Shown: piece by piece, positions 14,309 through 64,000 of the stretch
How positions within the stretch are numbered: position 1 is the stretch's first letter
How the letters are laid out: every line of letters starts with the position of its first letter
Virus genome (UHGV): UHGV-0175639
Length of the DNA stretch: 64,000 nt
Reading direction: 5' to 3' (one strand)
DNA from: a virus
Position numbers and translations under genes: made by a program
Notes under the pieces: generated by a model
The model's input: only the letters and a program-made list of their open reading frames with translations
The model's database searches: none
Told to the model about the DNA's origin: nothing

Positions 14309-14367
14309 CCTGCTTCCGTATATTAATAATTAATATGTGGTTATTTATATATACAGAAGCAGGCTAA
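14309..14367. terminator. large AT-rich hairpin CCTGCTTCCGTATA...TATACAGAAGCAGG downstream of the Dam-like gene
   Basis: 8-bp GC stem with AT-rich interior, U-rich tract on the transcribed strand; a near-copy is at 60705-60768. Confidence 0.5.
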
Positions 14368-14386: not shown

Positions 14387-14980
14387 CTAAGCAGCCTTCT
14401 TTGATGGTCTTTTTTTCCTGATCACATTCGCATGATCATACCCTCCCAGACTTTTCATGACGTCCAAAGGGATCTTGCTTATAGAGTGCCCAGCGTCCTG
14501 ACAGAATCCTCGAAAAACAACGAGCATACTGCCACCTGGGTTGATGTTTACTTCTACCTGACCCAGATTTACGTCAGGTTCGACAAACGCTACGCGGCCA
14601 CCAGACAGAATAATCGTCTCATTCGCACACTCTGTTGCACGCTCATACCACTTTGTATCTAGGGATTGAGGAATTAGCATCACTGTTGTAACTCCGCGAG
14701 CCTGCTCACGTATAGCCGCATCAATCCAGGGGTAGATTTTGGAGTAGGGTGGATTGAGGAAGGCAATTGTACCTGGCTGTCCCCATTCAGATTTCAAAGC
14801 ATCACGCTCAACGCCTATGAAATTAGGCAGCTTTGCATTGTCCTTGTTGCAGGCAACGTCAACATCAAATGTCACTCCAAGATAACGTTGAATGGCAGAA
14901 AACAGCCAGTCAGGTGTTCTCCAGAGGTCACGAAGAGAGTTGTCGCGCTTTCGCTGTTTGATTTTTTCGGCTGCAATCAT
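14387..14980 (-). CDS. phage-type DNA N6-adenine methyltransferase (Dam family)
   Basis: WRTPDWLF...FDVDVACN...FLNPPYS motifs of the phage Dam family. Confidence 0.75.
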   Translation of the reverse strand: MIAAEKIKQRKRDNSLRDLWRTPDWLFSAIQRYLGVTFDVDVACNKDNAKLPNFIGVERDALKSEWGQPGTIAFLNPPYSKIYPWIDAAIREQARGVTTVMLIPQSLDTKWYERATECANETIILSGGRVAFVEPDVNLGQVEVNINPGGSMLVVFRGFCQDAGHSISKIPLDVMKSLGGYDHANVIRKKRPSKKAA

Positions 14981-46980: not shown

Positions 46981-47367
46981 ATGTCTGACAACAAGATTGA
47001 ATTTATAGAAAGTCGCTATGCTGCTTTTATCGCAGGGCTGATTGAATCCTCACCTATGAGTCAGGCCCAAATAGCCAGACTTATTGGTTATAAAAATGCC
47101 AACAACCTTTCTTTAATTAAAAGTGGCAAAATTCCTTTGCCTATCGATAAGGTTCGTCCGTTGGCGCTGGCGCTGGGTATTGAGCCAAGTCGTCTTATGA
47201 TGATGGTGCTGGAAGAACGCCAACCTGAACTCGCAGCATTTTTATACAAAGAAGGCACCGCTCCTCTTAACGAGGACGAAAAACAGGTTCTTGCTGCATA
47301 TAACGAGCGATTCGGTAAAGAGAAAGGCGCATCACAAAAGGTTGTTGAGGCCATAAAGTCTCTATGA
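46981..47367 (+). CDS. HTH (Cro/C1-type) transcriptional regulator
   Basis: SQAQIARLIGYKNANNLSLIKSG helix-turn-helix; convergent with the recombinase. Confidence 0.6.
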   Translation: MSDNKIEFIESRYAAFIAGLIESSPMSQAQIARLIGYKNANNLSLIKSGKIPLPIDKVRPLALALGIEPSRLMMMVLEERQPELAAFLYKEGTAPLNEDEKQVLAAYNERFGKEKGASQKVVEAIKSL

Positions 47368-48465
47368 AAAATTTACACGAATAAGCTCTGTTGATAGACG
47401 ATCTCCCTTGAATTTGTGGTCAATTTCGTCTAAATCCGGTTGCTCTACGATTGATGCGATGTACGTCGAGAAACTTTCTAAGGCGTCTCGCATCTCGTCC
47501 ATATAATCGTGCCGGTCGTAGACTCGATCTATCCCCTCAAGACTGTGGTTCATGATTTTGCGTGATACCTCCTGGCTTATGCCTAATGCTGGGAAGTAAC
47601 TACGCGCAGTACGGCGCAAGTCTCGGGGTGTAAATGGCTCAAGCTCCATCAGTTCTGGTCGTTCCAGGATACGACGTAATGCCTGGGCTATTGCCACTTT
47701 AGACATAGGAAGGTCTTTCCCGATTTTTTTATTCGAAGGCACGAGCCACTGGCTGCCTTTACCGTATTCGAACAACTCTTCAATACATGTGCGCATTAAT
47801 GTGCTTAAAGGCAGCGAATGCTCACGGGCAGATTTGTTCCTCTTGCCTTGATTCCAAACCCCACGCTTAAGATTGAACTCACTTTTTTTAGCCCGCAGTA
47901 CTTCGTCAGGTCGTCTTGCGGATACAAGACACAGCCTGGCCGCCCATTTTGTACCAGCGCACACATTGAAGTAGTCCCATATATTCCAGAACACCCATAC
48001 CTCTGCGTCGGTCAGCTTCCGCTCGCGAGGTGTGGGCTTTGCGCCACCGGCAACTTTGTTTAGTGACATATCGTTTAACGGTGACACGTCTATCATCCCC
48101 TGGAAGGCGCACCAGCTAAGGAACTGCTTCATCAGAGAGAAAACGCGGCGGCCCATAACAATTTTGCCATCCAGTATTAGTGGGTTGACCAGTTGGTTCA
48201 CCATGAACCTATTAATGTCACTTACTTTTACATCGGCAATGTGCGGCAAAACATGTATCAAAATACAATGAACAGCGATCTCTGGCCGACGTCTTGTTAT
48301 CAGCAGAGATAAGCGAGTGAATAACATGAATGCGTCCGAGAATCTCATGTCATTGCTGACCTGCGAGATCATAACGGCCTGCATTTGAGATGCTCTTTCG
48401 AGATACTCAATCGCCTCTTTTGAGGTGTTCTCCGCAGCGCGTGCTCTGTCAAAGCTATTTTTCAT
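47362..48465 (-). CDS. tyrosine site-specific recombinase
   Basis: Conserved Arg and LRRT box and C-terminal VYDRHDY tyrosine region. Confidence 0.8.
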   Translation of the reverse strand: MKNSFDRARAAENTSKEAIEYLERASQMQAVMISQVSNDMRFSDAFMLFTRLSLLITRRRPEIAVHCILIHVLPHIADVKVSDINRFMVNQLVNPLILDGKIVMGRRVFSLMKQFLSWCAFQGMIDVSPLNDMSLNKVAGGAKPTPRERKLTDAEVWVFWNIWDYFNVCAGTKWAARLCLVSARRPDEVLRAKKSEFNLKRGVWNQGKRNKSAREHSLPLSTLMRTCIEELFEYGKGSQWLVPSNKKIGKDLPMSKVAIAQALRRILERPELMELEPFTPRDLRRTARSYFPALGISQEVSRKIMNHSLEGIDRVYDRHDYMDEMRDALESFSTYIASIVEQPDLDEIDHKFKGDRLSTELIRVNFS

Positions 48466-48596: not shown

Positions 48597-48675
48597 TTGA
48601 CGTTGTTTTTTGAATTTTAAGGGAAATGGGAGTGAGTTTGGTGGGAATAAAAACGGCTCCTGTGAGCCGTTAAAA

Positions 48676-48921
48676 TCAGAGGGTGCTGACGTATGCAGCC
48701 AGTTCTGTGTATCCGCCAATCGGCTGGCCATCGATCAGCACCTGGGGGATAGTCTCTACCGGTTTACCAACAATTTCACTTAGTTTTTCCTTGTTGATAC
48801 CGGCAGTGGTGATGTCGATGTACTCATAATCACCGTAGCCATGTCCCTTTAGTTGCTTCGCCAGCTCGACCGCACGTTTGCAGTATGAGCAGTTATCTCG
48901 TCCGTAGATAGTGATCGTCAT
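48676..48921 (-). CDS. glutaredoxin-like protein (NrdH/Grx)
   Basis: 81 aa from MTITIYGRDNCSYCKRA; CxxC thioredoxin-fold motif; GAGG RBS. Confidence 0.7.
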   Translation of the reverse strand: MTITIYGRDNCSYCKRAVELAKQLKGHGYGDYEYIDITTAGINKEKLSEIVGKPVETIPQVLIDGQPIGGYTELAAYVSTL

Positions 48922-49095
48922 TGTTACCTCATAGAATTGATATGCAACTTTACTTACAAAGAAGATAGGTATGTGCATACTTATCTTTGCAGTCTGCATT
49001 ATAAAGCTATTAAAGCCTCGATCAATCTATTAATTAAGGCATTGTTTGGTTAACATTAGCCTAATAATTTATAGTTAGTAGAGTGAAATACATAC

Positions 49096-50358
49096 ATGCC
49101 TTTTTTAATTTTCATTATTATACTACTGCTCACCGTTATTTTTTGGGATTGGGTTGTTTTAAATGGTCAAACTGTTGGAACATTGGCTACAGCATTTGCT
49201 TTTATAGCAACAGCATGGAATGCCTACGAAGCGAGAAAAAGTGCAAAAGCAGCTTTTTCAGCCCTTCAATTAACAACTGAATCATTGTTCGAAATGCGAA
49301 AGAGTGCATTTAAACAATGGTTTGATTCCTTATTAAATCAACATGATGCGTTATGTCTTCTTGCAAAACAAATTATCGATAAACACAAAATTAATTTAAA
49401 CAGCGATGAGTTACATAGACTCTATTACCCATTGGTAAAACAGCATGAGGTAATACAGTATGTGAAGCATATTATTAATATATTTGAGTATGTGGATAGT
49501 TCATTTTATATTGATGGGGAATGTCTCAAGGAAAAAAGAGCGTATGTATCACAATTAATTTTTAAAATCCCACCTCAGATGAAGTTGATCATTGCTATCT
49601 TTGGATTAAAAATCGATTATTGTGAACATATTAATTCGGAAAAACTGTGTTGTTTATTGAATAAATATGATTTTTTCAATGATGAAATATTTTTTGATGA
49701 TGCTTATTCAAATATGCCTTATCTGGATACATTCATAAACCTTAGATTCAATAAAATATTCAAATCTCGAATGATAAATTATTTTGATAATATCATTAAA
49801 AGTTATTATGTTCCATCGGACGTTAAAAGGGACTGGATGTTTCGACGCCCACAGCTCGTACCGTCGGTTCTTATGAATTATAAAACTCCTTGTTCTCCTA
49901 TAATTAATGATTACTTTGAGAAGTTGCCTTTACATGTAAGAAACTACTTTGAGGAACAACTTAAAACCGCGAATGATAGAGTTACTCATTTTGACGTTTA
50001 CATCCCACGCCTTATTGGTTGTTCAATCGTGCAACATTACGAAGATGTGCCTTCCGAAAAAAACAGGTTAAATGACAGGAATGATGTAATAGCTATGGCT
50101 GAAGATTACATCGAGAAAAGAAAATCTAATCAACTAGATTACATACTTGAAGATATATACTTCAAGAGTGACGAAGATATAATCCCAGGCCACCATTTGA
50201 TTGTGGCATTTGATGACTATGAATTTAAATTATCACTCATTAAGATAAATGAGAATAAAGATAGCGATAATCTTTTAAATCGAATTTATACTGAATCCAG
50301 TAGCATGGTTAAAGAATATAAGCGCGAAATATTAAAACTGGGCGACTATGTAAAGTAA
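49096..50358 (+). CDS. membrane-anchored protein, 420 aa, unknown function
   Basis: Two N-terminal TM helices then a long soluble domain; conspicuously AT-rich by eye; own terminator. Confidence 0.6.
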   Translation: MPFLIFIIILLLTVIFWDWVVLNGQTVGTLATAFAFIATAWNAYEARKSAKAAFSALQLTTESLFEMRKSAFKQWFDSLLNQHDALCLLAKQIIDKHKINLNSDELHRLYYPLVKQHEVIQYVKHIINIFEYVDSSFYIDGECLKEKRAYVSQLIFKIPPQMKLIIAIFGLKIDYCEHINSEKLCCLLNKYDFFNDEIFFDDAYSNMPYLDTFINLRFNKIFKSRMINYFDNIIKSYYVPSDVKRDWMFRRPQLVPSVLMNYKTPCSPIINDYFEKLPLHVRNYFEEQLKTANDRVTHFDVYIPRLIGCSIVQHYEDVPSEKNRLNDRNDVIAMAEDYIEKRKSNQLDYILEDIYFKSDEDIIPGHHLIVAFDDYEFKLSLIKINENKDSDNLLNRIYTESSSMVKEYKREILKLGDYVK

Positions 50359-50376
50359 ATTGCACTGTTCAACAAA

Positions 50377-55835: not shown

Positions 55836-56068
55836 GTTGGCTTCCCTTTATTTATATTTATCGCAGGTATTAGTTAATCAAAACACGAGCAGTGCCACAA
55901 TAATTAAATGGCGTACTATTTCTTATGGTTATTAGTTTCCTAGTAACTTTACCGACCATAAACTAAATCAACAAAGCTGACATATTAACTAAATTTAAGT
56001 ACCCTTTTTCGCACACTTGACGCTTGCCGCGTCTAAACTGTTCATCCTATATCAACAGAACAAAAAAT

Positions 56069-57214
56069 ATGAAATACATAAAATCTTCATCGTTGCTGGC
56101 ATTAACTTTGCTTTTTAGCTCTGGATTCGTTAACGCAGACAATAAACAAACGCTGATAGAAGCCGCTACCGCAGGGGATACCGCAGCACAAAGTGAGTTA
56201 GGGACAAATTATTTTGATGGTATCAATGGTTTTGATAAGGATGTAGTTGAGGCCAAGAAGTGGATTGATCTCGCTGCAGAAAAGGGAGACAAAGTAGCAT
56301 ATTATGCACTTGGGGTTATGTACACATTTGGCGAGGGTGTAGATAAAGACCTAAATAAAGCTGTTGAGTACTACAAACTTGCGGGGGATGCTCGTGAAGG
56401 TAGAGCCTACAACAATCTTGGTGCTATTTATCAAAAGGGGTTGCTTGGTAAAGTAGATCATGCACTCGCCATTAAATACTTCAAACTAGCCTCTGATGCC
56501 GGGTATGTTAAAGCAACTTCAGTTCTTGGGGCGTATTACCAATATGGTAAAGGCGTTAAAAAGAATTATAAAAAGGCTTTTACTTATTACAAAAAGGCGG
56601 CAGACCAAGGCAGTTCAGAAGCTATGATAGGATTAGGAATACTATACGATGATGGGTTAGGCGTTAAACGCAATGATGCAGAAGCAGTTAAGTGGTATAA
56701 AAAGGCAGCGGAACTTGGAAACGCCGACGCCATAACCAATCTTGGCATTATGTATGAGAATGGGGAAGGTGTAAAAAAGGACTATAAAAAAGCAGCCGAC
56801 CTTTATCAGACTGCTTGCGATAAAGGAGAAAAAAGAGGCTGCGATTACATTGCAGAACTGAAAGAAAGCGGCAAATATCGAGCGCCGGCTTCCAAAGCCA
56901 AAACAAAATCCGCCACCCAGCGACTTATTGCTAAATCCATTGATAAGGGCGTTAACGCTACATTTACCTGGCAGGGTGATGATGCTACCTTCACCGCTAA
57001 TGATGGCAAAGTTGACTGCACATTCCTGAAGGATTTTTCAGAGAAAGGAGGCAATCTGGCTACCTCGTTTGTTTGCACAGATAACGTTCAAATCATCCTG
57101 AAGCAATTCAGAGATACCAAAAATGCCTACCTCGCGGTAATGACTGACAACTTCAATACTGAAGTTAAATCATTTTCGGTCAATGTGTATGTGACTAATA
57201 CTGGTTCAAACTAA
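56069..57214 (+). CDS. secreted Sel1-like repeat protein
   Basis: Signal peptide MKYIKSSSLLALTLLFSSGFVNA; at least six Sel1-type repeats followed by a C-terminal domain of about 120 aa; AT-rich by eye. Confidence 0.7.
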   Translation: MKYIKSSSLLALTLLFSSGFVNADNKQTLIEAATAGDTAAQSELGTNYFDGINGFDKDVVEAKKWIDLAAEKGDKVAYYALGVMYTFGEGVDKDLNKAVEYYKLAGDAREGRAYNNLGAIYQKGLLGKVDHALAIKYFKLASDAGYVKATSVLGAYYQYGKGVKKNYKKAFTYYKKAADQGSSEAMIGLGILYDDGLGVKRNDAEAVKWYKKAAELGNADAITNLGIMYENGEGVKKDYKKAADLYQTACDKGEKRGCDYIAELKESGKYRAPASKAKTKSATQRLIAKSIDKGVNATFTWQGDDATFTANDGKVDCTFLKDFSEKGGNLATSFVCTDNVQIILKQFRDTKNAYLAVMTDNFNTEVKSFSVNVYVTNTGSN

Positions 57215-59852: not shown

Positions 59853-60602
59853 TTAATTAGATAGGGGATCAATAAACCGCCGTGCTTCTTCCAGTTCTTC
59901 TGGAAAGTGGGCGGAAATAAGGCGCTCTGGAACGATTTCCATTAGCCAGATAGCAGAGAAAATTGCGCGTATGCGCTTGCTGCGGGGGATGATGCGCAAA
60001 CGCTCCAGAATCCACTCAAAATAGCTTTCCTGAATCGGGTTGAACTGCATGTCTCCCATATGCTTAAAGCTAACCAGAGAGTCATCCAGACGGGTTGTTG
60101 CGCGTCTGGATAATTTCTCTTCGAATATCTCAACCAGTTCTGGCTGCCATAAATGCTGTGGGCGCGGCAACTTGTCCCACAGACGCCGTGCAGCTGCGGA
60201 AAGAACCGTGGAGATAAAGTAGTCGTATGAACAGCAATAGCGATCAGCAAACTGGCGTGCTTTCCATAGCGACGTTTTATTGGCAGTCGACAACTCCTGA
60301 TAAGGCAGGCGTTTTAACCCGGTGGTGAACGGAGCTGTTTCAAAGTGTTCGCGACCGTGCGTCAGCATGATATTTGAGTACTGACGTTTGTACGCCTCCG
60401 TAAACAGACAGGTGGCCATGAGAGGATGCATATCGCGGTAATCAAACCACTTCGTCTCGAAGAGTTCAGCCTCGTCTTTGCAGCGCGACAAACCAATGTT
60501 TTCAGCGACCCACTTGTCCATAACAGCGGTATTCCACTCTGTCATGAAGTCGTACTGGTCGTTGTCAATGGTATCAAAAAAGATTTGGCTCATGTGGCTC
60601 AC
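59853..60602 (-). CDS. hypothetical protein, 249 aa
   Basis: ORF upstream of the helicase; helicase-loader role is only a positional guess. Confidence 0.45.
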   Translation of the reverse strand: MSHMSQIFFDTIDNDQYDFMTEWNTAVMDKWVAENIGLSRCKDEAELFETKWFDYRDMHPLMATCLFTEAYKRQYSNIMLTHGREHFETAPFTTGLKRLPYQELSTANKTSLWKARQFADRYCCSYDYFISTVLSAAARRLWDKLPRPQHLWQPELVEIFEEKLSRRATTRLDDSLVSFKHMGDMQFNPIQESYFEWILERLRIIPRSKRIRAIFSAIWLMEIVPERLISAHFPEELEEARRFIDPLSN

Positions 60603-60704
60603 CAGATAGGTAGTTACTTACTTATTGCAATGAGCGGATGATAGCGACTGGTGGCAGTTTTTGGAAGTGGAAACGGAAGGGAATGTGTCTGGGAAGTTGG
60701 CATA

Positions 60705-60768
60705 GAAAAAGACCTGCTTCCGTATAAATAATAATAAGTAACTTAGTATTTATATACAGAAGCAGGTT
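60705..60768. terminator. large AT-rich hairpin CCTGCTTCCGTATA...TATACAGAAGCAGG (second copy)
   Basis: Same stem as 14309-14367; U-rich tract on the transcribed strand. Confidence 0.5.
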
Positions 60769-60790
60769 CCAAATTCAACCAGCAGGATGC

Positions 60791-61987
60791 TTAAACATCT
60801 TTTAGAAAGCCTGGAAACCAATGTTTCATGATATACCTAAAATGTGCTCTAGTTGGTTCAAAAACCTGTCTAGATACCAGCGCTCCATCAGGATGATTCT
60901 GAACAGACTGTTCTTTTTCCATATCGTAAAAATTATGAGTTATCTCTGGGGGGAAGAAAATATTTCTGTCCAGTGGCACTGTCGCAAAAGGATTGTAGTA
61001 AATATGAAGGCCGTCAAAGTGCGTCTCTTCATGAGCAGTGGAATGACAAACTACAATATCCGCACCAGTGACTTCGTTATTTAAAAAATGCCGATATGTA
61101 GTGATGAAATGATCAGGTCCTATCCTTTGTGTGTGCTTTCCCTCGTTTTTCATCCCTTCATTGGCGATGAAATCATTCACATCAATGGCTCGATATCGTG
61201 TTGACCTTACATATCTACCGATACCGCTTTGAACCACGGCTTTTCCAAAAGTGCCGGTGGTGGAGAAAATAACCGCACTTATTTCTTTATATGAGTCGTT
61301 AGTAAATATACCTAATGGAATTTCAACGTCTTCATTCTTTTTGATTGAGGTAACTTTAGTTTGGCTGCCAGTCACCAAATTTCTGGTGGTAGGTTCCTCA
61401 ATGCCAAACAACACTCGATTGATGATTGTGTTATTTTGAGACAATGATAAATCGGAGTCAAAGGGTGCAAGCGCCAGAACAAACGGCTTATTAACTACAT
61501 GAGACATCGTAGAGTACGGGAATTTTTTGCCATTAACTCCTGTAAAAAGATCATGTTTGTCTTTGATTTTTCCGATTAATTTTAGCGTTGATTGATGTTT
61601 GAATTTTGATTCGCTAAAAAGAACACCTGCAGGTGGATTATGTGGCCGATCTGATATCACAGCTTCGACGTTAAACTGGTAGCCTGACGGTGTAGTAACA
61701 CAGAAATCGGGACTGTCTTTTGTGTAGTCGACAGAATAATCGAGACGAATAAACATTTCGTTCAGATACAATTCCCATAAGGCGGAATTGAAGGTTGTCT
61801 GAAACTCTTTAACGAATTTAGTCTGCTCACCGCTACGCTCCAGTAACCCACGCCCCCACGACTGTATCACTTCTCTTACTGGAGCATATGTATTATCTTG
61901 ATAAATCTGTTTAAAAGATTCGTGCAGCTTGTTTTTTGCTATTTTGGTTGAGAACAAATCCATTATTAGCCTCACTAACCAGTTCAA
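60791..61987 (-). CDS. hypothetical protein, 398 aa (island gene 2)
   Basis: No recognised domain; AT-rich by eye; start may be the internal MDLFSTK. Confidence 0.5.
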   Translation of the reverse strand: MNWLVRLIMDLFSTKIAKNKLHESFKQIYQDNTYAPVREVIQSWGRGLLERSGEQTKFVKEFQTTFNSALWELYLNEMFIRLDYSVDYTKDSPDFCVTTPSGYQFNVEAVISDRPHNPPAGVLFSESKFKHQSTLKLIGKIKDKHDLFTGVNGKKFPYSTMSHVVNKPFVLALAPFDSDLSLSQNNTIINRVLFGIEEPTTRNLVTGSQTKVTSIKKNEDVEIPLGIFTNDSYKEISAVIFSTTGTFGKAVVQSGIGRYVRSTRYRAIDVNDFIANEGMKNEGKHTQRIGPDHFITTYRHFLNNEVTGADIVVCHSTAHEETHFDGLHIYYNPFATVPLDRNIFFPPEITHNFYDMEKEQSVQNHPDGALVSRQVFEPTRAHFRYIMKHWFPGFLKDV

Positions 61988-62029
61988 TAAGAAAAGCGCC
62001 CAACATAATCATTTGAGGAAAGTCTGGAG

Positions 62030-62788
62030 CTACTTCAGCTTTTCTTTGACAAGAAGATAACCATCATCAGGTGTACTCATTTTGTAAACCTCGATGCTCG
62101 TGTCTAGCTGTGTCCGGGCATATTCTTCTACTTCAGGAGAAACGTTATGTCCAAGAATGATCTCTCTAATATATTTCTTATCAAATGCCTGAGCGCCTAT
62201 TTTTTTAGTAATAACCCTTTGTTCTTCCTCATATTTCCAGCATTCGTGCTTGTAGAAAAAGAGCTTATCAAAAAGTACCTTAAACTCATCTGTAACTTCA
62301 TCGAACACGGGAACAGAAGGTATATATTTCACATTATCAAAGCTGTGATACCCCTCAATAGAGGTAACAAAATCATCATCAAAGCCTATGCAGAAACCTT
62401 TATGCGACACTGAGTAATGTGACCACATCAAGATGTTATCTTCGTTTGGTGACAAGCACACCACACCAAAAGCCCCTAATGATTCTTTCCGCAAATCCAC
62501 AGCCAACGATTTTGCAGCTTCAGGAGCTACAGCATCCCAGTCTTCAAAGGAAAAATCCTTACATCCATTGTCTTCAAAGTGTTTCCGGTGCTCCACTTCT
62601 GTACCTCCCATCGTTATCGAAACTTTGAACTCTGATGGGTCGTTGAATGAAGAAGGTGCGCTAGCAGAGATAGTGCCGTCCTCTACAAACCGTTTGAGGT
62701 TACGTAACACTTTTTGCGAATCTTCACTTCCAATATATTTGTAGAGCATTAGGGAACCTATAGAAAGAGGTGCCAAGCAGCACCTCAA
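62030..62788 (-). CDS. DUF2971-like protein, 252 aa (island gene 1)
   Basis: LYKY...SSFNDPSEF...MWSHYS...GFCIGFD pattern as remembered for DUF2971; begins 6 nt after the ParG-like stop. Confidence 0.5.
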   Translation of the reverse strand: MRCCLAPLSIGSLMLYKYIGSEDSQKVLRNLKRFVEDGTISASAPSSFNDPSEFKVSITMGGTEVEHRKHFEDNGCKDFSFEDWDAVAPEAAKSLAVDLRKESLGAFGVVCLSPNEDNILMWSHYSVSHKGFCIGFDDDFVTSIEGYHSFDNVKYIPSVPVFDEVTDEFKVLFDKLFFYKHECWKYEEEQRVITKKIGAQAFDKKYIREIILGHNVSPEVEEYARTQLDTSIEVYKMSTPDDGYLLVKEKLK

Positions 62789-62793
62789 TAAAA

Positions 62794-63153
62794 TTAACCT
62801 TTCTTCATCAACTCGCGTTTGATTTCATCGGTACGCATCGTGACATCGGCAGCTGTGATCGCCTCGTTAAGTTTCACGATGTCCTCGATTTCCTGCGGTG
62901 TCTTCTCCGCAAGATGGAAAATAGCAGCACGAATCACGTCAGAACGAGTGAACTTCTCGAAGCGAGGGATGAACTTCATCATCTCCAGCAGTTCGAAGTA
63001 TTCGTCCTCCAGTGACATTGTGCGGCTTTTAATTTTCTCTTTGCCACGAGTCGGGCGTCCCTGTGGTCTGACTGGTTGGCGCAAAGGAGTTGTGTTCTTA
63101 GCCGGTGCATCAGGCTCTTTGCGCTTTGCTAGGTCACCCATTTTCATGGACAT
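62794..63153 (-). CDS. small partition protein (ParG/ParB-like centromere binder, putative)
   Basis: 119 aa, basic N-terminus, directly downstream of parA with overlapping stop and start. Confidence 0.5.
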   Translation of the reverse strand: MSMKMGDLAKRKEPDAPAKNTTPLRQPVRPQGRPTRGKEKIKSRTMSLEDEYFELLEMMKFIPRFEKFTRSDVIRAAIFHLAEKTPQEIEDIVKLNEAITAADVTMRTDEIKRELMKKG

Positions 63154-63821
63154 TATTCTTCTTCCTCCAGACTCAACAGATAATCTACAAATTCTTCAAA
63201 CTCGGCTTCCGCCTTTTTGTCGCGCTCGCTACCGGTCATTTCAAAGATAGAACGACCAGACTCTTCCGCATCATCATAGACGTTGCGGTTATATAGATTG
63301 ACTGGCGCAGACTCGATGCCAAACGTCTCAACAATCTCTTTAGCCGCCAGAATGCGAGACACTTGTGATGGCAAAGCCGGGCACTGGTTCATGACCGCGC
63401 GGACCTTCACTTTATCGTTTACATTGCGAACATTGTCGATAATAGGATCGATGTCACGTAAAGATTTCAAATCACGACGCTTAGGACGCAGCGGGATAAT
63501 GATAACGTCAGCCATCAGCATCGCTTGTCGCTGAATTTCGGAGTCGAAGCCACCAGCATCTACCACTACAAACTCAGCTCTACCCTGAAGCGATTTTAGG
63601 TGCTTAATGATGTCATCCTGAACGTATGCAAAAGGAATCAGCTCAAGGTCTTCGTTCTGTCGACGGTCTTCACACCAGCTCGTTGTCGTGCGCTGAATAT
63701 CTATATCGGTAATATAAACCTTCTTCTTCTTTTTGACTTTCAGGCAAACGGCAATTTGCTGGGCAACGGTGGATTTGCCAGGCCCGCCCTTTGTGCCGCC
63801 AACCACAAAGATCTTGGTCAT
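63153..63821 (-). CDS. parA: ParA-type partition ATPase
   Basis: Deviant Walker A GGTKGGPGKST; 222 aa. Confidence 0.85.
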   Translation of the reverse strand: MTKIFVVGGTKGGPGKSTVAQQIAVCLKVKKKKKVYITDIDIQRTTTSWCEDRRQNEDLELIPFAYVQDDIIKHLKSLQGRAEFVVVDAGGFDSEIQRQAMLMADVIIIPLRPKRRDLKSLRDIDPIIDNVRNVNDKVKVRAVMNQCPALPSQVSRILAAKEIVETFGIESAPVNLYNRNVYDDAEESGRSIFEMTGSERDKKAEAEFEEFVDYLLSLEEEE

Positions 63822-64000
63822 TGGAGAGTTCCCTTTGCGTATATAATTATCGTCTGAAACAACTTGTTTTCTTATATGTGATATAGCCTAAATGCCTACG
63901 GCTGCGGTGTAAAGGTTTAATGATAGGTACATAGGGGGGGCTTAATAACAAAAAACCCGCCGTAGCGGGTTTATTGATTCATAGATCGTTTAGTCAGAAT

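Follow-up and report, generated by a model that had tools for sequence, protein, structure and literature searches.

A cargo slot behind the partition genes of an SSU5-type phage-plasmid carries genes of the DUF2971 and PD-T7-5 defence families

Introduction

The prototype of PD-T7-5 is a single coding sequence (RRM82777.1) of Escherichia coli UMB0934 that came out of the functional selection of Vassallo et al. 2022 (PMC9519451). It was cloned with 143 and 119 nucleotides (nt) of flanking sequence, annotated as 'Nuclease' and validated against T7 in E. coli (PMC9519451, Tables S1/S2), and a review places it among the PD(D/E)XK systems. A 2025 preprint in which DefenseFinder was run on clinical phage-plasmids lists PD-T7-5, PD-T4-3, PrrC and restriction-modification systems for SSU5 clade J elements from E. 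coli and Shigella (bioRxiv 10.1101/2025.09.12.675607). Here we analyse UHGV virus genome UHGV-0175639, a 64,000-nt stretch of DNA referred to as the window throughout, which is an SSU5/pHCM2-type phage-plasmid of E. coli and carries a PD-T7-5 gene behind a DUF2971 gene at the end of its partition operon.

The DUF2971 family has been placed in the H-Y-E clade of ADP-ribosyltransferases (ARTs), beside DarT and AbiGi; its members share a conserved motif-II tyrosine and an ExE motif, and similarity to AbiGi has been reported (PMC12522546). Aristaios, a lactococcal DUF2971 protein, provides abortive infection as a single gene, has an ART-like model (PMC11381338) and was later reported to interfere with phage transcription. 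An earlier reading of the window, made from the letters alone (the sequence-only reading), had singled out the two genes as an AT-rich island and a candidate for an undescribed defence or exclusion system. We find that the island is almost certainly anti-phage cargo, as that reading supposed, both of its genes belonging to defence families and lying in a slot used by defence genes. It is, however, not undescribed: PD-T7-5 has been validated and is already known from SSU5 clade J phage-plasmids, and the DUF2971 gene corresponds to the catalogued candidate PDC-S31.

Results

The second gene of the pair (60791-61963, minus strand) is, judged by its profile match, a full-length member of PD-T7-5. 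Its product matches the PADLOC model PDLC04110 with an E-value of 2e-139 and 462 bits, residues 9-379 covering positions 1-342 of the 346 in the profile, and residues 9-249 additionally match PD-T7-1 of the same collection (E 1.9e-42). The sequence-only reading could place no domain on this protein, which agrees with Pfam, where we also found none, but not with PADLOC. The length of 398 amino acids (aa) given at the time rests on a TTG at 61987; the gene most likely starts at ATG 61963 instead, which yields a protein of 390 aa beginning MDLFST. We predict an N-terminal PD-(D/E)xK nuclease followed by a beta-rich C-terminal domain. E64, D86 (in SPDF) and E100 (in NVEAV) are invariant across PD-T7-5 homologues. 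The beta-rich half gave no informative match, and a profile search of PDB sequences returned no meaningful match and no relative with a solved structure.

The first gene (62030-62749, minus strand) encodes a DUF2971 protein of 239 aa that scores 30 bits against PF11185 (cut-off 22) and matches all four PADLOC models of PDC-S31 (E 4e-38, 2.7e-31, 1.5e-24 and 8.5e-8). The motifs LYKY, FNDP, MWSHY and GFCIGF, by which the family had originally been recognised here, are indeed its conserved positions. Among 38 DUF2971 homologues, Y112 (in MWSHY) and Y173-E174 are invariant and E176 is nearly so; Y112 and E174/E176 correspond to the motif-II tyrosine and the ExE motif of the published family description (PMC12522546). 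The structure model suggests an ART-like core that would be closest to DarT. A Foldseek search of this model against PDB gave nothing significant and a DUF2971 profile search of PDB sequences no meaningful match. Neither neighbour of the gene, the parG-like protein or PD-T7-5, matches a macrodomain in Pfam. The family had been taken to lack a defined mechanism, a view superseded by the ADP-ribosyltransferase assignment (PMC12522546), by Aristaios as a validated defence member (PMC11381338) and by its listing in PADLOC as PDC-S31.

Both genes lie in a stretch bounded by two hairpins, one next to the parG-like gene (62767-62786) and a longer one downstream (60713-60766). Comparison with related plasmids indicates that this stretch is a cargo slot filled by interchangeable anti-phage genes. 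The pair itself is present in 11 of 704 plasmids that share the flanks and is therefore not a housekeeping element, which answers the question of neighbourhood conservation in favour of cargo. When variants are aligned, they cease to resemble one another a few bases short of the long hairpin and immediately past the parG-proximal one, so that the edges of the slot are sharp. We surveyed its occupants in an evenly spaced sample of 60 of the flank-sharing plasmids. A DUF2971 gene was found in at least 19 of them, including S. Typhi pHCM2 and many Klebsiella and Enterobacter plasmids, and just one of these slots also held PD-T7-5. A 255-aa gene on the opposite strand, identified as PD-T4-3 (GIY-YIG), occupied about six, and three contained a KAP-type NTPase (PDC-S49). 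About eight slots held a 352-aa gene on the opposite strand, with examples from E. coli and Klebsiella phage-plasmids (L109 584-1642, L111 589-1647), that matches nothing in Pfam or PADLOC; its position makes it a candidate for an unexplored defence gene, more novel than the pair in the window. The remainder of the sampled plasmids matched only the par flank. PD-T7-5 alone fills the slot in Salmonella and Cronobacter phage-plasmids. In pH322_1, a plasmid of Cronobacter sakazakii, a DUF2971 remnant of about 90 nt from the 3' end still separates the parG-like gene from PD-T7-5, which is intact (L112 1661-1867), and from this remnant we conclude that DUF2971 was deleted from an ancestral pair while PD-T7-5 was kept.

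Outside the slot, each of the two families is also found by itself. No DUF2971 or AbiGi gene lies within 8 kb of PD-T7-5 homologues (28-60% identity) at 80 loci from species-representative genomes, and when the neighbours at these loci were clustered, no family recurred in more than five. The 36 open reading frames (ORFs) upstream of PD-T7-5 homologues are heterogeneous by Pfam and have nothing in common except two AbiGi proteins. Among 5,426 complete E. coli genomes the pair occurs in 13, always on plasmids, whereas 136 have only a chromosomal PD-T7-5 homologue, located in a P4-like island by ssrA/smpB. P2-like prophages carry a 52%-identical DUF2971 gene by itself in their tail-fibre/sheath slot, a 57%-identical PD-T7-5 gene stands alone in a Serratia P2-like prophage, and another PD-T7-5 copy sits behind a Lit-like protease. 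P2-like and P4-like slots hold these two families. PD-T7-5 copies linked to AbiGi are 76-78% identical to that of the window (L085 5187-7176, L086 5249-7182, L113 3249-5173) and have no AbiGii beside them, a sign that AbiGi-type genes can take different partners, each of about 400 aa.

We also compared the pair with AbiG directly. PD-T7-5 was considered as a disguised AbiGii and rejected: it has no PF16873 or PADLOC match to that family, and hmmsearch and blastp against the AbiGii proteins of Bacillus and Enterococcus, which themselves do match PF16873, found nothing. For the DUF2971 protein, searches up to an E-value of 1 returned DUF2971 and PDC-S31 and no AbiGi (PF10899 or PADLOC). When the DUF2971 profile was aligned to single AbiGi sequences with hhalign, only the ExE motif aligned, at a probability of at most 9%, and the homology of the two families accordingly rests on the literature.

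The coordinates of the first gene depend on its start. ATG 62749 (MLYKY) is conserved among homologues, and RefSeq calls an identical 720-nt gene. This start lies 44 nt past the stop codon of the parG-like gene; the 6-nt gap given by the sequence-only reading would need a TTG start at 62788 and should be replaced. The 44-nt gap holds the GC-rich hairpin at 62767-62786 (minus strand, -13.5 kcal/mol), a terminator-like site placed directly after the parG-like stop codon, at the upstream edge of the slot. Compared between the window and the equivalent positions of L003, L004, L091 and L095, this hairpin is stable in all five cargo variants, while its stem sequences differ (-13.5 to -21.9 kcal/mol; z -3.6 to -7.6). 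It is possibly a partial terminator or an RNA end-stabiliser, and it may also serve as a conserved attenuator, a bidirectional terminator or a recombination boundary of the slot. Co-transcription of the cargo with parA, as proposed earlier, is plausible, but because of this hairpin, which transcripts must pass in the gap between the parG-like and DUF2971 genes, it is not assured.

At the downstream edge, the long hairpin at 60713-60766 (minus strand) likely terminates transcription of the par genes and the cargo. It had been noted that the pair ends in a hairpin with a twin after a Dam-like gene, and this observation holds, with the coordinates corrected to 60713-60766 and 14309-14363 (minus strand). 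The 14-nt arms at 60713/60753 are identical to those of the twin at 14309/14350 (five matches versus 0.59 expected by chance), the AT-rich loops differ, and both structures fold well (z of -3.5 and about -6.0, respectively). Each is followed by a T-run on the minus strand and stands in the same orientation behind minus-strand genes, the twin being preceded by a Dam methyltransferase gene (14387-14980; PF05869, E 2.9e-38). The hairpin at 60713-60766 is conserved in all six cargo variants that were aligned, and the sequence upstream of it is not. The same hairpin is kept across the SSU5 family.

The base composition of the insert sets it apart from its surroundings. Over 60767-62793 the GC content is 0.399, compared with a window mean of 0.455 and with 0.47-0.49 for each of the flanking genes (parA, the parG-like gene, a 246-aa gene, dnaB and the primase gene); at third codon positions (GC3) the cargo reaches 0.37-0.40 and the flanking genes 0.51-0.57. 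The insert falls within the lowest 3.5% of the window's 2-kb windows by GC, and a single stretch elsewhere, at 47.7-49.4 kb, is lower. The contrast in AT-richness described by the sequence-only reading is therefore real, and the profile is not uniform with the neighbours. Low GC and GC3 point to a foreign origin, and the view that the two genes were acquired horizontally, as cargo behind the partition operon, is supported.

The region around the slot is well represented among known elements. Positions 60600-63900 are 100% identical to plasmid pS2-S1K81-2 (NZ_CP107145.1), and the flanks share 80-97% identity with phages SSU5, Cyrano and CMS-2020a as well as with about 700 non-mobilizable enterobacterial plasmids. 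Every gene of the region lies on the minus strand, in the order parA, parG-like, DUF2971, PD-T7-5, the 246-aa gene, dnaB and primase. The operon begins with parA (63153-63821), which encodes a partition ATPase of the ParA/MinD type (Pfam matches MipZ, AAA_31, CbiA and ParA) and is 97-100% conserved among related plasmids. The parG-like gene (62794-63153, 119 aa) adjoins parA in all relatives examined; its product has no Pfam match and is, by position, the presumed centromere-binding partner. In phage Cyrano the parG-like gene (L003 3988-4347) carries the label 'RelE/ParE putative toxin', which looks wrong, as does the entry for the Cyrano DUF2971 gene, a hypothetical protein whose extended N-terminus overlaps the parG-like gene. 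Amid the replication genes, a Sel1/TPR-repeat protein with an N-terminal signal-like sequence is encoded on the opposite strand (56024-57214, plus); RefSeq labels its counterpart in the matching plasmid a tetratricopeptide repeat protein.

A second variable stretch, the lowest in GC (about 0.35), is found at 48597-50375 and adjoins an integrase gene (47362-48465). It contains a glutaredoxin-like gene (48676-48999, minus strand) and a 420-aa ORF (49096-50358, plus strand) that has no Pfam or PADLOC match. The same stretch of NZ_CP107145.1, which is otherwise near-identical, holds a 307-aa gene, GrxA, an AbiGi gene (273 aa) and a gene for a 403-aa protein with a PD..ELK nuclease motif. This latter protein was tried as a relative of PD-T7-5 and rejected (hhalign probability 0.2%). 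The stretch is likely a second cargo hotspot.

Discussion

We consider it probable that the slot is filled here by two autonomous defence genes, one encoding an ART-like DUF2971 protein and the other a PD-T7-5 nuclease, which protect the lysogen. Given that each gene occurs alone elsewhere, two stacked single-gene systems are the best reading of the pair, and we hold it with reasonable, though far from complete, confidence. Several observations weigh against this interpretation. PD-T7-5 lacks the canonical lysine two residues past E100 (the motif reads EAV), and the catalytic lysine must come from elsewhere; K82 and K128 are invariant, and catalytic competence is thus presumed. To our knowledge, no enterobacterial DUF2971 protein has been tested experimentally, and PDC-S31 is a candidate system only. 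In a promoter scan, promoter-like sites were no more frequent than expected by chance. Finally, an ART-like gene lies upstream of a PD-T7-5 gene that is 73-80% identical to ours in six of about ten contexts, at a distance of 41-86 nt and on the same strand.

This last observation also belongs to the case for one cooperative, AbiG-like system of an ART-like protein (DUF2971 or AbiGi) and the PD-T7-5 nuclease. One of them might sense or regulate and the other act as effector, or both might be effectors and so broaden the range or prevent escape; solo PD-T7-5 would be a reduced, active form. DUF2971 and PD-T7-5 are joined in two diverged phage-plasmid variants and in one CbtA-toxin island outside any phage-plasmid, and AbiGi (PF10899) precedes PD-T7-5 in a Proteus lambdoid prophage, in the tail region of a Yersinia prophage and in a chromosomal island of Klebsiella/Enterobacter. 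Since these settings are unrelated, the combination moves as a cassette. The reported similarity of DUF2971 to AbiGi (PMC12522546) and the (W/F)xYExExR motif common to both fit such a system, as do the gene sizes, about 240 and 390 aa against 273-285 and 401-405 aa for AbiGi and AbiGii, and the AbiGi gene of NZ_CP107145.1 with its different 403-aa partner. We nevertheless regard it as unlikely, and the idea of a two-gene system as weak. PD-T7-5 suffices for defence on its own (PMC9519451); in complete E. coli genomes its solo copies outnumber the pair tenfold, and in the 80 more distant loci they are the rule, while DUF2971 alone is the commonest occupant of the parAG slot and also occupies the P2 hotspot. 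The Cronobacter phage-plasmid lost DUF2971 yet kept PD-T7-5 intact. In a neighbour-joining tree the DUF2971-linked PD-T7-5 copies do not form one clade, although the AbiGi-linked copies do, and a PD-T7-5 gene beside an unrelated Lit-like protease is what simple stacking predicts. The corresponding mechanism, in which interchangeable ART-like proteins (DUF2971 or AbiGi) would modulate, trigger or complement PD-T7-5, making the pair an enterobacterial counterpart of AbiG and the gene tested in 2022 its minimal form, seems to us rather improbable.

The location of the cargo at the end of a partition operon also raises the question of plasmid addiction, with an ART-like or nuclease toxin killing cells that lose the element. 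DarT-type ARTs and PD-(D/E)xK domains of CdiA-CT are toxins, and relatives have toxin-antitoxin genes close by, such as KacT in phage Cyrano. The locus, however, offers no antitoxin candidate, neither a macrodomain by Pfam nor a small upstream ORF; the same genes reside in hotspots of chromosomal prophages and satellites, a setting in which addiction is hard to make sense of; the slot of relatives holds validated defence genes; and most related phage-plasmids lack this cargo. A maintenance role is therefore very unlikely. We give even less credence to the cargo being an inert passenger or a decaying remnant. Low GC and patchy distribution would be compatible with this, as would the frameshifted PD-T7-5 copies at some Mesorhizobium and Nostoc loci, but both ORFs of the window are intact and full length and retain every family-invariant residue, the exact PD-T7-5 protein is present on 419 contigs, and the cargo is 99-100% identical among plasmids from humans, pigs, cattle and poultry.

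How two stacked systems might work can be outlined from their relatives; substrates, triggers, expression route and the defence activity of the window's DUF2971 protein are all features that we infer. In the plasmid-prophage state, transcripts of the cargo would come either from its own weak promoters or from polymerases reading on out of the autoregulated par operon, and they would end at the long hairpin. No antitoxin is present, and both proteins would therefore be self-restrained until infection. DUF2971 might then draw on NAD+ and ADP-ribosylate either nucleic acid or some key protein, as its predicted DarT-like fold and the example of Aristaios suggest, and, again by analogy with Aristaios, block phage transcription or replication abortively. 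PD-T7-5 could respond to the phage by cleaving phage or host nucleic acid, a proposal founded on the predicted fold and the conserved acidic residues. Its substrate might be DNA, or RNA as with the PD-(D/E)xK CdiA-CT toxins, and the beta-rich C-terminal domain may act as a sensor. The effect would be to shield the lysogen, and hence the phage-plasmid, from competing phages.

The island that had been flagged as undescribed thus consists of a validated defence gene and a catalogued candidate in a fairly ordinary defence hotspot. What our analysis adds is a sharply bounded slot at the 3' end of parAG in SSU5/pHCM2-type phage-plasmids, with at least five alternative occupants. Clinical E. coli, Shigella, Salmonella Typhi and Klebsiella commonly harbour such phage-plasmids, whose cargo may shape phage susceptibility and the outcome of phage therapy. 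In nature the slot also comes with DUF2971 alone, PD-T7-5 alone or both, variants that could serve as a clean test of synergy, and the repeated adjacency of ART-like genes and PD-T7-5 offers a testable handle on AbiGi/DUF2971 function.

Compared with known systems, the second gene stands closest to the PD-T7-5 prototype, with which it shares the full-length profile match, a length of 390 aa, the E. coli host, the predicted nuclease domain and the location on a mobile element. The prototype is active as a single gene, whereas the copy in the window occupies a phage-plasmid par-operon slot behind a DUF2971 gene. PD-T7-1, from the same study, has the nuclease and the middle region in common with our protein but about 100 additional N-terminal profile positions and another C-terminus, and the match is partial only. 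The first gene resembles PDC-S31/DUF2971 in matching all of its models and PF11185, in its single-gene format of about 240 aa and in its mobile-element hotspots, with the difference from validated systems that PDC-S31 is a computational candidate. Aristaios (Lactococcus plasmid pUCCL641, 316 aa) belongs to the same Pfam family, has a predicted ART fold and is, in its own setting, a plasmid-borne single-gene abortive-infection system affecting phage transcription; it comes from another phylum, is 77 aa longer than the window protein and is likened to it by family only. From DarT of DarTG, the DUF2971 protein differs in having no adjacent DarG macrodomain antitoxin, no detectable sequence similarity and large helical inserts. 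AbiG of Lactococcus shows the same two-gene layout, about 240-280 aa followed by about 400 aa, and a first-gene family related to AbiGi, but neither protein of the window matches the AbiGi or AbiGii models. As for the slot itself, the defence hotspots of P2 phages and P4 satellites, reportedly described by Rousset and colleagues in 2022, likewise combine a fixed position, conserved edges, a temperate mobile element and interchangeable defence genes; in the window, the position is the 3' end of an SSU5-type phage-plasmid partition operon.

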